From: Spirochaetia bacterium
GTDB lineage: Bacteria > Spirochaetota > Spirochaetia > B11-G9
Assembly (NCBI GenBank): GCA_029932585.1
Contig: JAOZPU010000005.1
Coordinates: forward strand, 13,527-51,115
Reading direction: 5' to 3'
Length of the DNA: 37,589 bases
Positions 2 to 34,286 of the stretch are shown here, piece after piece. Under the pieces are notes generated by a model. The model did not search any database and was not told where the DNA came from. It saw only the letters and a program-made list of their open reading frames with translations. Numbering within the stretch: the first letter of the stretch is position 1; each line of letters begins with the position of its first letter. The position numbers and the translations under genes were made by a program.

Positions 2-43
2 GATAAAATGGGTGACACGTAGTGTTAGAGACCTATTTTAGTC
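2..43 (+). promoter_or_regulatory. Conserved stem-loop leader upstream of ABC substrate-binding protein gene (copy 1)
   Basis: GATAAAATGGG-TGACAC-GTA-GTGTTA-GAGA-CCTATTTTAGTC folds into an outer and an inner stem. It matches 32724..32765 at 34/42 positions without gaps and is followed by an AGGAG RBS (51..55) and ATG at 62. Confidence 0.7.
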
Positions 44-61
44 AAGAAAAAGGAGTGCATT

Positions 62-1312
62 ATGAGTAAAAGATTATTAATTTTGCTGGTTGTTTTTTTA
101 ATTATCGGCAGCAGTTTCAGTTTATTTGCTGTTGGGGCAAAAGAGGTTCCTGTTGATTATCCAGCAGAGATGGATGCCTGGCTTCAGGAAGCTAAGCTTG
201 GACCATATGAAGGAGAGCAGGACTGGGACGAAATAGAGAGACTGGCAAATGCAGAAGGAGAACTGGTTGTTTATTCTTCATCATCCAGGGTTGAAAAAGT
301 TGCTGCTGAATTTGAGAAGAAATATCCAGGGATCAAGGTTATGAGCCACGATCTTGGATCGGTAGGTACAGTAGAAAAAACAATAAATGAACAGGATGCA
401 AATCTGTTTAATGCAGATCTTATTACAACTGGAGGATCTGGTCAGGTTATACATGAATTGCTGAACAATTTTAGAATTGTAAATTTTGTTCCATCCATGT
501 TTGTGGATCAGATACCGGAAGAGTATAGAGAACCTCTTTTAAACAGAATTGTTGAAGGTTATGTTTTAATGTACAACAGAGAATTCTATGGAGATACACC
601 TCCAATTTCTAATGTATGGGAACTTACAGAAGAAAAATGGAGAGGTAAGATTGTTTTAAAAGATCCTATGGCTTCTCTTTCAAATAAAATGGGTCTGTGG
701 ACTATGGTTCAGCATGCAGATGAGTTTGCAAAAGCCTATAAAGATCTGACAGGTAATAAAGTTGAACTTCACGAAGGCGTTCCAGATGCCGGATATGAGT
801 TTATCTACAGACTTCTTCATAATGATCTTATAATACTGGGTTCAGGCAGCAAGGTTGCCAAAGCTTCCGGTGCAAAGGGCCAGACTAATCCTCCAATTTC
901 AATTACCGGTTATACATATATCAGGTACAATGAGTCTAAGGGCTATGTAAATGCACTTGTAACACCCCTTGCACCTTTTGAAAATATTATTACACCTGTA
1001 TATACAGCTATTGCACGACAGGCTGCTCATCCTAATGCAGCAAAACTTTTTACAGCTTTTCTTCTTGGGGACATTAGTATTACTCAGGACACTGTAATTT
1101 CCCAACCTTACAATGAGGGAGAAAGTGCAAAATTGCTTCAGGGACTTGGTCCTTATTATTCACCCGGATCAAAAAGCCCACGTGATACAGTTCCTGTAGC
1201 TGCTGGTGGTGAAAAATGGTATGACCTGGACAGCTGGTTTGTAGATCCTGATTTTATGTGGTTTGAAGGACAGAAAGTTCAGGACTTCTGGGTTCAGGAA
1301 GTTGGGAACTAG
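62..1312 (+). CDS. ABC transporter substrate-binding protein (Fe3+/polyamine/thiamine-like class; substrate unknown)
   Basis: Signal peptide ending LFAVGAKE; AEGELVVYSS, YPGIKV, W.GKIVL.DP and AAHPNAAKLF motifs; adjacent ABC ATPase; AGGAG RBS. The permease presumably lies upstream of the window. Confidence 0.85.
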   Translation: MSKRLLILLVVFLIIGSSFSLFAVGAKEVPVDYPAEMDAWLQEAKLGPYEGEQDWDEIERLANAEGELVVYSSSSRVEKVAAEFEKKYPGIKVMSHDLGSVGTVEKTINEQDANLFNADLITTGGSGQVIHELLNNFRIVNFVPSMFVDQIPEEYREPLLNRIVEGYVLMYNREFYGDTPPISNVWELTEEKWRGKIVLKDPMASLSNKMGLWTMVQHADEFAKAYKDLTGNKVELHEGVPDAGYEFIYRLLHNDLIILGSGSKVAKASGAKGQTNPPISITGYTYIRYNESKGYVNALVTPLAPFENIITPVYTAIARQAAHPNAAKLFTAFLLGDISITQDTVISQPYNEGESAKLLQGLGPYYSPGSKSPRDTVPVAAGGEKWYDLDSWFVDPDFMWFEGQKVQDFWVQEVGN

Positions 1313-30800: not shown

Positions 30801-31786
30801 TGCTTGAAATAAAAAATCTTAACATAAGTTTCGTCCAGGGAGAAAAAGAGGCTAATGCACTTAGAGGTATTAGTTTAAGTCTTAAACGAAATGAAGTACA
30901 TTCTCTTGTTGGTGAATCCGGATCAGGAAAAACAGTAACATCTACCTGTATAATGGGACTTCTCCCTACACCTCCTGGTCGTATAAATTCCGGTCAGATT
31001 ATTCTTAATAATCAGGATCTTCTTCTTCTGGAGGAAAAGGATCAAAGGCAAATTAGAGGTAAAGAGATTGCTATGGTTTTTCAGGAACCTGCACGATATC
31101 TAAATCCCACTTTAAAGGTTGGAGATCAAATTACGGAGATGTTAATTCTTCATCTTGGTATGAGTAATATTGAGGCTGTAGATCGGGCACTAGAGATACT
31201 TGAACTTGTTGGCCTTGAAGGTGGCAAACGAATTCTTGACAGTTATCCTCATGAACTTTCAGGTGGAATGAAACAGCGAATTATGATAGCTATAGCTATA
31301 AGTTGTAATCCTGCTTTTTTAATTGCAGATGAACCAACAACAGCCCTGGATGTAACTCTTCAGCTTCAGATACTTAATCTTATGCTAAGTTTGAAAAACA
31401 CTCTGGATATGGGAATTTTATTTATTTCACATGATTTGCGAGTTGTTCATGATATTTCTGACTGGGTTTCGGTAATATATGCAGGAAGAATTGTTGAATC
31501 AACGTCTCGTAAAGAGCTATTTACGAATCCGAAACATCCATATACACGACTTCTTCTTGAATCTATTCCTGATGCAGATAAAAGAGGTCAAAGGCTTCAG
31601 ACTATACCAGGAAAAGTTCCTGATGCAGAGAATATACCTGGGGGTTGTGCTTTTCATACAAGATGTCCTATTGCAGAGGATATTTGCAAAACAGACTTAC
31701 CTGAGACAAAAGAAGTAGGTTCGGATAATTCTGGTACCTCTCATACAGCAGCATGTCACTTTATTGGAAAACAATGGAAAAATTAA
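30800..31786 (+). CDS. Opp/Dpp-family ABC ATPase (DppD-like) with C-terminal 4-Cys motif
   Basis: GESGSGKT, LSGGMKQR, ADEPTTALD, HPYT and GCAFHTRCPIAEDIC...AACH; GTG start overlaps the upstream TAG. Confidence 0.95.
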   Translation: MLEIKNLNISFVQGEKEANALRGISLSLKRNEVHSLVGESGSGKTVTSTCIMGLLPTPPGRINSGQIILNNQDLLLLEEKDQRQIRGKEIAMVFQEPARYLNPTLKVGDQITEMLILHLGMSNIEAVDRALEILELVGLEGGKRILDSYPHELSGGMKQRIMIAIAISCNPAFLIADEPTTALDVTLQLQILNLMLSLKNTLDMGILFISHDLRVVHDISDWVSVIYAGRIVESTSRKELFTNPKHPYTRLLLESIPDADKRGQRLQTIPGKVPDAENIPGGCAFHTRCPIAEDICKTDLPETKEVGSDNSGTSHTAACHFIGKQWKN

Positions 31787-32703
31787 TTGAATTAAAAAAT
31801 ATTATCAAGGTTTTCAAAAGCCACAAACTCATATCTGTAAAAAAGGATAACTACGTAGCTGTCAATAATGTAAGTCTTGATATACAGAAAAATACTATTT
31901 TCGGTCTGGTTGGTGAGTCTGGTTGTGGAAAAACAACTCTTGCCAGATCTGTAATGATGCTGGATCCTCCCAGTTCCGGAGAAATCATTTACAATGGGAA
32001 AAATATTTCAGGCATTTCAAGAAAAGAACTCCATCCATACAGGTCAAGAATGCAGATCGTCTTTCAGGATCCAAATAGCGCCCTTAATCCTAAAATGTCC
32101 ATATATAACTGTATGAAAGAAGGTTTGGTAAACAGAAAGTTTCCAAAAGATAAGATGGATAGTAAAATTAAGAGTTTGCTTGATCTTGTTGGAATTTCTC
32201 CAAATCATGTAAATCGATTTCCACACGAATTTTCAGGAGGGCAAAAGCAGAGAATTGTTATTGCCCGGGCACTTTCCATGGAACCGGAATTTCTTGTTTT
32301 GGATGAACCTGTTTCTAATCTTGATGTATCAATTCAGGCTCAAATAATAAATCTTTTACTGGATTTAAAAGATGAGTTTTCATTGACGTATCTTTTTATC
32401 TCCCATGACCTTAATCTTGTTTCATATTTAAGTGATGAGGTTGCTGTGATGTATAAAGGAGAGATTGTGGAGACTGCTAAAACAGAAAAAATTATGAAGA
32501 AACCCATGCATCCATATACTCTCAAATTGTTTTCATCTGCTCCAGGTAAAGATAGTAATAATCTTTTTGAAGCAGATGATAGCTACAGAGAAGGGTTACC
32601 TGAAAAATTTACATATTTCCCTCCAAATCCTGATTCTACTTTGCAGCTAATAGATATTGGAGAAGATCACAGAGTTGGTTGTTATACATTAAACGGATCG
32701 TAG
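31774..32703 (+). CDS. Opp/Dpp-family ABC ATPase (DppF-like)
   Basis: GESGCGKT, FSGGQKQR, LDEPVSNLD and HPYT motifs. Start probably ATG 31774, alternatively 31753. Confidence 0.95.
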   Translation: MEKLIELKNIIKVFKSHKLISVKKDNYVAVNNVSLDIQKNTIFGLVGESGCGKTTLARSVMMLDPPSSGEIIYNGKNISGISRKELHPYRSRMQIVFQDPNSALNPKMSIYNCMKEGLVNRKFPKDKMDSKIKSLLDLVGISPNHVNRFPHEFSGGQKQRIVIARALSMEPEFLVLDEPVSNLDVSIQAQIINLLLDLKDEFSLTYLFISHDLNLVSYLSDEVAVMYKGEIVETAKTEKIMKKPMHPYTLKLFSSAPGKDSNNLFEADDSYREGLPEKFTYFPPNPDSTLQLIDIGEDHRVGCYTLNGS

Positions 32704-32721
32704 ATTCGTAAAAAATATATA

Positions 32722-32767
32722 TCGATAAAATGGGCGATACGAAGTGTCAAGGTTCTATTTTAGTCGA
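32722..32767 (+). promoter_or_regulatory. Conserved stem-loop leader upstream of ABC substrate-binding protein gene (copy 2)
   Basis: TC-GATAAAATGGG-CGATAC-GAA-GTGTCA-AGGT-TCTATTTTAGTC-GA; 34/42 identical to 2..43; followed by AAGGAG and ATG 32781. Confidence 0.7.
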
Positions 32768-32780
32768 AAAGGAGTAACAT

Positions 32781-34286
32781 ATGAGAAAGGCAGCAAAATT
32801 TGGATTATTTCTTGTCATGATTATGCTTATGACAGGGATGCTGTTTGCAGCTGGGAGTAAAGAGGTTAAACCCCTCAATTTTGCTTTGGCTGGAAATCCT
32901 GATACATTAGATCCTCACAAAACTTCGGGGACTCTTACGTTTCAAACAGTTAAGAGTGTTTACGATACACTGGCAGAACCAGATGAAAATGGTGTTATTG
33001 TACCGGCTCTTGCTGAAAGTTGGGATGTCTCAGCTGATTCACTTACATGGACCTTTCATTTAAGAAAGGGTGTAAAATTTCATAATGGTGATGCTTTTAC
33101 ATCTGCAGATGTTAAGGCTTCTTTTGAAAGAGTTCTGGCAGAAGAAACAGCTTCTCCTCATAGAAAAGAGATGGGTATTATTGCATCTATGGATACACCT
33201 GATGATTTAACAATTGTATTTAATCTTTCTGGCCCACATGCTCCTTTTCTTGCAACCCTTGCTTCCGGTTGGAGTGCAATTCTTCCTAAGAGTCTGATTG
33301 ATACAGGTCATGATTTTGACTCTCTTCCTGTAGGAACCGGACCTTTTAAACTGGAAGAATGGGTTCGTGACAGTAAGGTTGTATTTTCAAAGAATGATGA
33401 TTACTGGATGAAAGGACTACCAAAACTGGATAAGGTTATTCTTCACATTATACCAGAGACATCTGTTGTTGTTCAGGGACTTATTTCCGGTCAGATAGAT
33501 GTAGTTTATATTGTTGACAGTGATGATATTCCAATGCTTGAAGCAAGTCCTGATGTTACACTGAAGGAGAATCTTACATCCCTTATAATGGTTATGCCAA
33601 TGAACACCAGCAAACCTCCTCTTGATGATATTAGAGTACGTCAGGCTATTAACTATGCTATTGATAAGCAGAAAATACTTGATATTGCATATGGTGGTGG
33701 TGAAACTATTGGAACATTTATGGATCGTGGGAATGCATACTATAAAGATTTTACAGATCTTTATCCATATAATCCCGAAAAGGCTAAAGCACTTCTAAAA
33801 GAAGCCGGTGTTGGTAATGATGTTGAATTAAAACTGTATCTTCCCCAAAATTATACCCTTCATGTTAAAGCTGGAGAGATGTATCAGGAGATGCTTACCA
33901 AGGTTGGCCTAAATGTAAAAATTCAGTTAATTGACTGGTCTACATGGATTAGTGATGTTTATAGAGCTAGTAAGTTTGACTTAACAGTTATTGGACATAC
34001 TGGAAAACTTGATCCTGATGGTACTCTTGGTGGTTATGGCGAAGGTAAATATGTTCAATGGTTTAATGATGATGCTGCAGGACTTATAAAGAAAGCAGCT
34101 GCAACAATTGGATATGAAGAAAGAAAGGTAATGTATGACCAGGTTCTTGAAATAATGGCAAAAGAAGTTCCTTTTGTTTACCTTGGTTCTTCCTATAGAA
34201 CAACTGCTTATCGATCTAATGTAACTGGATTTAGGATTACTCCGAACCTGGATACATTTGACTTCAGGTGGACAGAGTTTAAATAG
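32781..34286 (+). CDS. Family 5 ABC substrate-binding protein (DppA/OppA-like)
   Basis: Signal ending LFAAGSKE; PDTLDPH, LAESWDVS, LRKGVKFHNG, PVGTGPFKL, VRQAINYAID and YNPEKAKALL motifs. Confidence 0.95.
   Translation: MRKAAKFGLFLVMIMLMTGMLFAAGSKEVKPLNFALAGNPDTLDPHKTSGTLTFQTVKSVYDTLAEPDENGVIVPALAESWDVSADSLTWTFHLRKGVKFHNGDAFTSADVKASFERVLAEETASPHRKEMGIIASMDTPDDLTIVFNLSGPHAPFLATLASGWSAILPKSLIDTGHDFDSLPVGTGPFKLEEWVRDSKVVFSKNDDYWMKGLPKLDKVILHIIPETSVVVQGLISGQIDVVYIVDSDDIPMLEASPDVTLKENLTSLIMVMPMNTSKPPLDDIRVRQAINYAIDKQKILDIAYGGGETIGTFMDRGNAYYKDFTDLYPYNPEKAKALLKEAGVGNDVELKLYLPQNYTLHVKAGEMYQEMLTKVGLNVKIQLIDWSTWISDVYRASKFDLTVIGHTGKLDPDGTLGGYGEGKYVQWFNDDAAGLIKKAAATIGYEERKVMYDQVLEIMAKEVPFVYLGSSYRTTAYRSNVTGFRITPNLDTFDFRWTEFK

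Follow-up and report, generated by a model that had tools for sequence, protein, structure and literature searches.

The two 42-nt hairpins that stand before ABC binding-protein genes in this spirochaete DNA are members of a family of small dispersed palindromic repeats (hairpin of 42 to 43 nt), and both are lineage-specific insertions. The window, by which we mean the whole stretch of 37,589 nucleotides analyzed here, is G000:C112:13527-51115, G000 being the genome from which it comes. It seems quite probable that the family is a selfish or near-neutral mini-element akin to REP, MITE, or MIRU repeats, with the hairpin kept because the copying machinery reads it and with the surviving copies being those that leave the Shine-Dalgarno (SD) sequence and start codon intact. 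The original prediction had taken the two copies for a cis-acting RNA element, such as one raising binding-protein levels over permease and ATPase, or a site for an RNA-binding regulator. The two hairpins do not act as a signal controlling transporter binding proteins.

The sequence features first described for the pair proved accurate. Copy 1 (2..43) and copy 2 (32724..32765), both on the + strand, match at 34 of 42 positions, with 8 differences and no gaps, and the likeness is far above chance, with covariance-model E values around 1e-13 for both (8e-14 for copy 1 and 8e-13 for copy 2). Folded as the + strand, each gives the two-helix hairpin that had been proposed: an outer helix and, beyond an internal loop of four bases on the 3′ side, an inner helix of 5 to 6 bp with a 3-nt loop. 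The fold of copy 1 (-11.8 kcal/mol; z, -3.1) is equaled by 1 of 200 shuffles; that of copy 2 (-7.1 kcal/mol; z, -1.5) is equaled by 17 of 200 and is thus thermodynamically unremarkable by itself. Each copy ends 4 to 7 nt 5′ of an AGGAG, in keeping with the predicted position near a ribosome-binding site (RBS). For copy 1, the AGGAG is at 51..55 and the ATG at 62, and for copy 2, they are at 32770..32774 and 32781; sequence and orthologous spacers identify both as part of a native AAGGAG SD (50..55 and 32769..32774, + strand). A 100-N scaffold gap lies directly 5′ of the window start, so that the bases 5′ of copy 1 fall within it.

The genes that follow do encode different kinds of binding protein, as had been claimed. 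Downstream of copy 1 is an open reading frame for a putative solute-binding lipoprotein of 416 amino acids (62..1312, + strand), with matches to SBP_bac_11 (E, 4e-5) and SBP_bac_1 (E, 1e-4) that are both below the Pfam cut-offs; an ATPase gene of the MalK type comes after it. Downstream of copy 2 is an OppA-like gene of the SBP_bac_5 family (32781..34286, + strand; Pfam E, 9e-103). Copy 2 is indeed internal to an operon-like string of opp genes, ordered oppB/oppD/oppF-element-oppA-oppC, and the stop codon of the OppF-like ABC ATPase gene (31753..32703, + strand; Pfam ABC_tran and oligo_HPY) lies 20 nt 5′ of it.

The element had not been recognized as a known riboswitch, and Rfam 15 likewise gives no match there: at the gathering score there were 0 matches in the window, and among Rfam models at E ≤ 1 in five loci, nothing overlapped the element. 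A scan of 32400..33000 found no consensus intrinsic terminator at copy 2; just 4 T residues follow the G+C-rich core (at least 5 were called for), and all of them belong to the outer stem. The TAAAAT within GATAAAAT was considered as part of a promoter and set aside, no promoter-like site being reported around copy 2.

Covariation alone cannot tell regulatory RNAs and selfish palindromes apart, but presence or absence at orthologous sites can. At the copy 2 junction, the oppF-oppA spacer aligns on both sides, without the element, in all five congeners (L112 to L116); in G000, roughly 50 additional bases stand immediately before the shared AAGGAG, and the AAGGAG-to-ATG spacing is unchanged in all five element-free orthologues. 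At the copy 1 junction, the element is absent from the orthologous spacer in three of three congeners (L118 to L120). The SD-to-ATG stretch there, AAGGAGTGCATT-ATG, is identical in L118 and L119, and L120 has AAGGAGTGTTTT-ATG, with the same SD, the same spacing, and three spacer bases changed. The absence of the element from these orthologous spacers argues for a dispensable, recent insertion and against a conserved leader.

Filled and empty sites are found throughout the family. Of the junctions filled in relatives, 16 are empty in G000, 2 are filled, 1 holds a different repeat, and 1 has a scaffold gap at the expected repeat start. Where filled and empty alleles of a single copy were compared (thirteen cases), the filled one exceeds the empty one by 40 to 53 nt, with a median of 50, which corresponds to the hairpin plus 7 to 8 nt. 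Some copies are decaying (L064 and the yidC copy of G000).

The family is small and narrowly distributed. A third copy in G000 lies between fabG and fabF, where a scaffold gap splits it and its inner stem is fully compensated; a fourth was found by pattern search in a congener, in the spacer that separates the genes for an oxidoreductase and an aminotransferase. Three copies were used to build a covariance model (R1), which was run on 11 genomes of the bacterial family. At E ≤ 1, it matched all seven genomes of the window's genus, g1 (7 matches in G000, 22 in G006, 8 in G001, 18 in G004, 15 in G003, 2 in G002, and 9 in G005), and 0 of 4 genomes in two sister genera. Over 151 genomes of the class, R1 at E ≤ 0.001 matched just four g1 genomes and one outsider, G116, a member of another family of the class with two weaker matches at E ≤ 10. 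Apart from those two weaker matches, the family is found in one uncultured Spirochaetaceae genus only. A strict 28-letter degenerate pattern gave 27 loci in six spirochaete metagenome-assembled genome (MAG) records from a collection of 185,579 species and, in metagenomes, 35 loci with 36 copies; in viral contigs, it gave 0 matches.

Within G000, nhmmer listed seven copies: two on C112, one on C68, two on C9, the split copy on C144, and one on C36 that is interrupted by another repeat. An eighth, diverged copy before yidC was missed by both the covariance model and nhmmer. All of the genomes are fragmented MAGs, and copy numbers are therefore lower bounds. In this MAG, three or more scaffold gaps fall where these repeats do; gaps are present at C112:13427, C144:4551, and C133:7764. 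The idea that acpP is hidden in the C144 gap splitting the fabG-fabF copy was discarded: acpP is on C207, and metagenome contig L141 has an intact 42-nt copy at the same site. For the analyses that follow, 65 loci were fetched and 63 searched; the acpP locus, L004, was excluded, as was L025 because of its overlap with L014. They yielded 73 matches at E ≤ 0.01 in seven genomes, one of which is a reverse-strand echo of L002, leaving 72 sense hits.

If the element were a leader specific to ABC binding-protein genes, raising binding-protein output over permease and ATPase, such genes should recur behind it. Both window copies do precede binding-protein genes, and two further family sites precede a phosphonate-type one. 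However, among 48 downstream proteins sent to Pfam, 42 of which had matches, only 4 are binding proteins (three by Pfam, plus the weak one at window position 62), and the other 44 are not. The products include ribosomal proteins S18 (rpsR), L9 (rplI), and L27 (rpmA), NifU, CarB, DnaN, YidC, BamA, and FliQ, as well as a CheY-like receiver, thioredoxin, desulfoferrodoxin, aminotransferases, rhodanese, an aldo-keto reductase, and others. With the two transporter operons of the window free of the element in 5/5 and 3/3 congeners, we give the binding-protein leader next to no credence. By manual grouping, the copies occupy about 35 distinct junctions, and those filled in two to four species are nifS-nifU, rpsR-rplI, ychF-reductase, and a TPR gene. 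The copies are thus scattered over gene classes, as those of a generic repeat would be; their orientation, however, is not scattered, and covariation is present.

The usual layout is stop codon, hairpin, SD, and ATG. Among 61 noncomposite copies (the composite repeat is described below), the nearest downstream open reading frame of at least 80 amino acids is on the strand of the element for 49; 6 have none, and 6 have one on the opposite strand. Two of those last six are copies within a + strand gene (L041), two (L019 and L056) have a Pfam-supported + strand gene at 48 and 63 nt, one (L027) has an overlapping + strand frame that begins directly after the element, and in L042, the next array copy comes after the element. 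None of the 61 is shown antisense to a supported gene, the opposite-strand frames being ORF calls only. Counted from the listing, the start codon lies 12 to 27 nt 3′ of the element in 32/61, and an SD such as AAAGGAG starts some 3 to 6 nt 3′ of it. On the other side, also by count from the listing, the upstream stop codon in 22/61 either lies no more than 5 nt from the element or coincides with the TAA of its GATAA. For the remaining copies, a second copy or one of two other small repeats intervenes before the gene. The metagenome copies have the same layout. All seven G000 copies are on the G-rich strand, as are their genes, and orientation to replication and orientation to transcription are therefore inseparable.

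Copies are also found inside genes. A NuoF/HydB-like gene of G006 carries two tandem in-frame 51-nt units directly before the conserved CNADEGDPG motif, adding 34 amino acids as two copies of a 17-residue peptide; the insert is missing from six of six orthologues (92 to 96% identity), whose frame has 588 residues. The two units are bounded by three perfect TAAGGGA sequences, and empty alleles have one. A TPP-dependent enzyme gene of G002 holds one in-frame 51-nt unit (+17 amino acids) with an imperfect flanking repeat. The upstream frame at two junctions, nifS-nifU and bactofilin-like/TPR, continues into the element and terminates within it or beyond. Since nifS and nifU overlap natively, the element there sits in the last nifS codons, directly before the nifU SD.

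The copies also mix with one another and with other repeats. Neighboring copies are all direct repeats, with periods of 50 to 54 or 96 to 97 nt; tandem 50- to 54-nt periods occur at six loci (L017, L024, L041, L049, L059, and L153). A CRISPR reading of the 96-nt arrays in G006 was rejected, as their 53-nt "spacers" (at L014, L031, and L042) do not differ from one another and are themselves copies of another repeat. A composite repeat of about 190 nt, with terminal inverted repeats of its own, holds 11 of the 72 hits, mostly in G004, where seven are identical; these composite copies lie in divergent or antisense contexts and near contig ends. A second repeat family interrupts copies at differing positions (L056, L058, C36, L150, and L154).

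The hairpin itself is well supported. The compensatory inner-stem changes pointed out in the original pair are real and recur throughout the family, and covariation, which had been proposed as a check, is strong. Standard pairs fill 96.3% of cells, compared with 86.9 ± 0.5 in shuffles; double-sided changes are seen in 15 of the 17 pairs, compared with 7.8 ± 1.2 in shuffles; and 0 of 500 shuffles match the observed value on any pairing measure. Sliding the partners by one to three columns brings pairing down to 33 to 40%. The alignment behind these numbers was fitted to the R1 model, and a further check was therefore added: 57 distinct copies were aligned with MAFFT without regard to structure, and from that alignment RNAalifold gave the same two helices. 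Near-invariant unpaired bases are the 5′ GATAA, the GAA loop (third base A in 56/57), and the GGGA internal loop.

What stands of the proposed cis-acting RNA element is therefore a real hairpin, with covariation, on the sense strand directly 5′ of an RBS; what does not stand is the link to binding proteins and the idea of a conserved leader. The hairpin may have an effect at the RNA level. One can envision a selected cis-acting module, a sense hairpin kept 4 to 8 nt before the SD for its action on the polycistronic mRNA. Such a module might serve as a barrier or a processing site, leaving the downstream cistron with a stable 5′ end of its own; it might instead protect the upstream message or attenuate weakly. 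The near-constant SD distance is consistent with this, as are the lack of any noncomposite copy shown antisense to a supported gene, the strong conservation of the unpaired GAA loop and GGGA internal loop, and the compensatory changes that keep the hairpin at orthologous nifU and rplI sites in three to four species. Pairs of G and U outnumber A-C combinations by 35 to 10, implying that the gene-sense strand is the one kept foldable, and the downstream genes, such as those for ribosomal proteins and NifU, are often expected to be highly expressed. Against it, the same junctions do without the element in sister species, which marks it as dispensable; nested insertions break hairpins whose sites are nevertheless kept (L056, L058, and C36); some copies decay, and others lie within coding sequence. 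The two strands fold about equally well (sense, -12.99 kcal/mol; antisense, -12.39 kcal/mol; sense better in 31/57), and the element has no consensus terminator or promoter and no Rfam match. On balance, we consider selection for such an RNA role unlikely.

A mixed history can also be imagined, in which a mobile hairpin cassette homes to SD-like octamers, which would account for its sense-only position ahead of the RBS, and has been co-opted as a portable intercistronic RNA module, providing a structured 5′ boundary for rplI, nifU, and oppA. We hold this to be rather improbable; if it were true, a transposed RNA part of 50 nt would be re-tuning gene expression without promoters.

The folded form could also be DNA, with the hairpin or a cruciform bound by a host protein or used in replication or recombination. 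The BIMEs of Escherichia coli bind IHF or gyrase. The nearly equal folding of both strands and the invariant unpaired bases would suit such a site. The C-GAA-G triloop offers a hint in the same direction, being a motif of very stable DNA mini-hairpins (PMC13037366, PMC3201870). However, constant sense orientation and SD adjacency would not be expected of a DNA-level site, the excess of G-U over A-C pairs indicates that one strand is favored, and the copy number is low, at 2 to 22 per genome. We find a DNA-level function very improbable.

We therefore return to a selfish or near-neutral mini-element and to how it may move. Imperfect flanking repeats are seen at L009 and at the fliQ, phosphonate-SBP, TPP, and composite-repeat sites, and in tandem pairs, the spacer repeats the left flank. 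Over 64 distinct copies, flanking direct repeats were not significantly above shuffled pairings (permutation P, 0.08), and copy 2 has no clean target duplication. Target duplication is cleanly shown at one site only, by TAAGGGA in the NuoF/HydB-like gene of G006, and is imperfect elsewhere. Taken together, a surplus that stays at about 8 nt, the TAAGGGA duplication, which is perfect, the imperfect repeats, and the tandem-spacer pattern favor transposition with a target duplication of 7 to 8 bp. Native sequence at several sites resembles the element ends, as with GATAAAAT at the FtsX and rhodanese sites of G000, and some empty G000 sites already hold the first eight bases of the element; this end-like native sequence would fit recombination or copying based on microhomology, or imprecise loss, equally well.

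No inserting enzyme was found among the candidates checked, which were eight loci with Y1-transposase genes. Such genes (PF01797) occur in all seven g1 genomes, and R1 at E ≤ 10 gave 0 copies around them in those eight loci (23,334 bases; 8 of about 30 matches). The inverted repeat that borders the Y1-transposase gene of G000 is not the element. When G000 was scanned under loose criteria for a parent insertion sequence (both element ends, 300 to 4,000 nt apart), only noise was returned.

The element behaves as a nonautonomous unit, mobile or recently mobile, that comes and goes between sister species and is duplicated in tandem. Insertion may be catalyzed in trans by an enzyme that recognizes the folded strand, and the invariance of the unpaired GATAA, the GAA loop, and the GGGA internal loop could point to a protein reader. 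The target would be an SD-like octamer, rich in purines, of which insertion makes a second copy; a duplicated target of this kind would account for the constant spacing to the SD and also for the one orientation. Copies settle or survive on the sense strand between the upstream stop codon and the next SD, with the native SD-to-ATG stretch untouched, and the element is also carried in frame within genes and inside the larger MITE-like repeat and serves as a landing pad for the second repeat family. Once transcribed, the hairpin is probably near-neutral, changing mRNA decay or readthrough at the junction modestly at most. Both window copies were inserted in the G000 lineage, and they would stand before two binding-protein genes by chance.

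For annotation, these results keep a covarying hairpin before transporter genes from being filed as a riboswitch or leader. The roughly 35 junctions with and without a 17-bp hairpin 5 nt 5′ of the SD amount to a natural experiment, offering a ready test of its effect on operon expression. The in-frame 17-residue peptides inserted into conserved enzymes speak to protein tolerance.

The closest parallels are with known families of small repeats, and in the literature on small palindromic repeats, most subscription journals being outside coverage, we found no description of this one. REP and BIME sequences are described in one review as dispersed imperfect palindromes of 21 to 65 bp that are transcribed in operons, are often intercistronic in transporter operons, and form mosaics (PMC3184786). 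Like the REP/BIME families of enterobacteria and pseudomonads (including REPINs with RAYT), the element is a short, imperfect, dispersed, and mostly extragenic palindrome, here of 42 to 43 nt, and it forms mosaics with two other repeat families. Its copies, however, number in the tens, not the hundreds; neighboring copies are direct tandems and not the inverted doublets of REPINs; and in contrast to REP/REPIN-RAYT systems, no copy lies at the eight Y1-transposase loci examined. The 5′ end of REP is the tetranucleotide GTAG, whereas that of the element is GATAA. In addition, the element is sense only and stands before the SD instead of after the end of the upstream gene.

MIRUs are units of 40 to 100 bp that lie in operons in the orientation of the flanking genes, abut stop and start codons, have filled and empty sites and tandem copies, and are thought to disturb downstream expression little on insertion (PMC3184786, PMC12548453). 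The element shares with them its location in operons, its gene orientation, its contact with stop and start signals, its tandem units, and its filled and empty sites. It differs in being a compact hairpin, without sequence similarity and in a different phylum, and in keeping the native SD, whereas a MIRU has a relay open reading frame coupled to the downstream start. A relay frame was considered here and rejected: of 57 copies, 36 have U and 21 have C in the column that would provide the ATG, and the base there changes together with the one it pairs with. The mini-frames of the window copies (in copy 1, one that stops after 4 codons; in copy 2, one of 15 codons that ends 3 nt before the start codon) are no family trait.

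Neisseria REP2 and the IR repeats of Borrelia plasmids have internal stem-loops immediately upstream of many genes, by the RBS (PMC3184786). The element adjoins the RBS as they do, but they bring their own promoter, RBS, and ATG; the element leaves the SD-to-ATG stretch native, and no promoter-like site was found. Rickettsia palindromic elements (RPEs) insert in frame into protein genes or extend their 3′ ends (PMC3184786). The copies in the NuoF/HydB-like gene (+34 amino acids) and the TPP enzyme (+17 amino acids) and the C-terminal tails of the NifS-like and bactofilin-like proteins are similar, although RPEs measure 105 to 146 bp, and the element is a 51-nt unit with mostly intergenic copies. 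As in MITEs, such as the Correia element, there are inverted-repeat ends, no coding capacity, presence/absence polymorphism, nesting, and one perfect 7-bp flanking duplication; unlike in MITEs, the 42 to 43 bp consist of two arms and a loop, the loose G000 scan turned up no parent insertion sequence, and target duplication does not show as a general trait. Cyanobacteria provide a further parallel in their very small dispersed repeats. The element thus fits the definition of none of the families compared, with no RAYT link at the loci examined, no inverted doublets, relay frame, or RBS of its own and with target duplication unproven. It represents a previously undescribed repeat family, in an uncultured spirochaete genus of the marine-sediment type, whose address is unusually strict: the sense strand, in the gap between stop codon and SD.

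The 42/43-nt hairpin element is also carried inside a larger MITE-like composite, roughly 190 nt long, with inverted repeats of about 19 nt at its termini. Copies of this composite were found in the congeners G004 (loci L010, L016, L022, L028, L032 to L035 and L045), G003 (L011) and G001 (L047), and at three metagenome loci (L125, L146 and L155). Seven copies of the 42/43-nt module within the G004 composite repeats are identical, and many are located at contig ends, which suggests recent activity. One neighbouring copy of the composite is devoid of the module.

Two further repeats keep company with the element. The first, a small hairpin with a unit of about 38 to 40 nt, is recognized by its core (CTGGTCG..AA and GCTGCTCG.C), which matches about 47 times on the scaffolds of the window's genome, G000; the 37,589-nt window contains no copy. 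Examples lie at C36:6788-6825 and, on C61, upstream of proS. Many G000 scaffold-gap edges carry it (those of C139, C211, C182, C76, C14 and C93, for instance), and it interrupts copies of the 42-nt element at differing positions (C36, L056, L058, L150 and L154). The other repeat, with the core AGAGACTTTC, a short loop and then GAAAGTGCTCGAAAGC, is frequently placed directly after the element, as on G000 C144, just 3′ of the fabG-fabF copy; it was also seen at L006, L020, L037, L014, L031, L042 and L057. About eight core matches are present in G000, and in the congener G006 this repeat and the element together make tandem arrays with a period of 96 to 97 nt.

The set also has a counterpart outside the genus. 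G116, a genome from a different family within the class, contains a diverged hairpin copy (L121, C89:3109-3240) followed by relatives of the two other repeats, one nested in the other. The set of three therefore either predates the genus or was transferred.

Three 100-N scaffold gaps in G000 coincide with sites of the element: C112:13427-13526, just before the window, C144:4551-4650 and C133:7764-7863. On a metagenome contig (L141) matching the C144 gap, both element halves adjoin with nothing between them.

Coding sequence is affected as well. A NuoF/HydB-like flavoprotein of G006 (P0001; L041/L101, C237:10850-12703) has a 34-residue in-frame insert that consists of two element copies and directly precedes the conserved CNADEGDPG motif; none of the six orthologues has such an insert. 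Within copy 2 in the window, a 15-codon frame (32731..32778, ATG at 32731) ends 3 nt before the start codon of oppA (32781..34286, + strand). Its counterpart in copy 1 stops after 4 codons, ACG replaces the ATG in 21 of 57 family members, and the frame is probably incidental.

G000 has a Y1 (IS200/RAYT-type) transposase gene (L099, C144:10510-13854) with copies of GGGACGGAGGAATA.. in inverted orientation on either side; the same motif is found at the edge of a scaffold gap. The gene and its flanking repeats may represent a separate REP-RAYT-like system.
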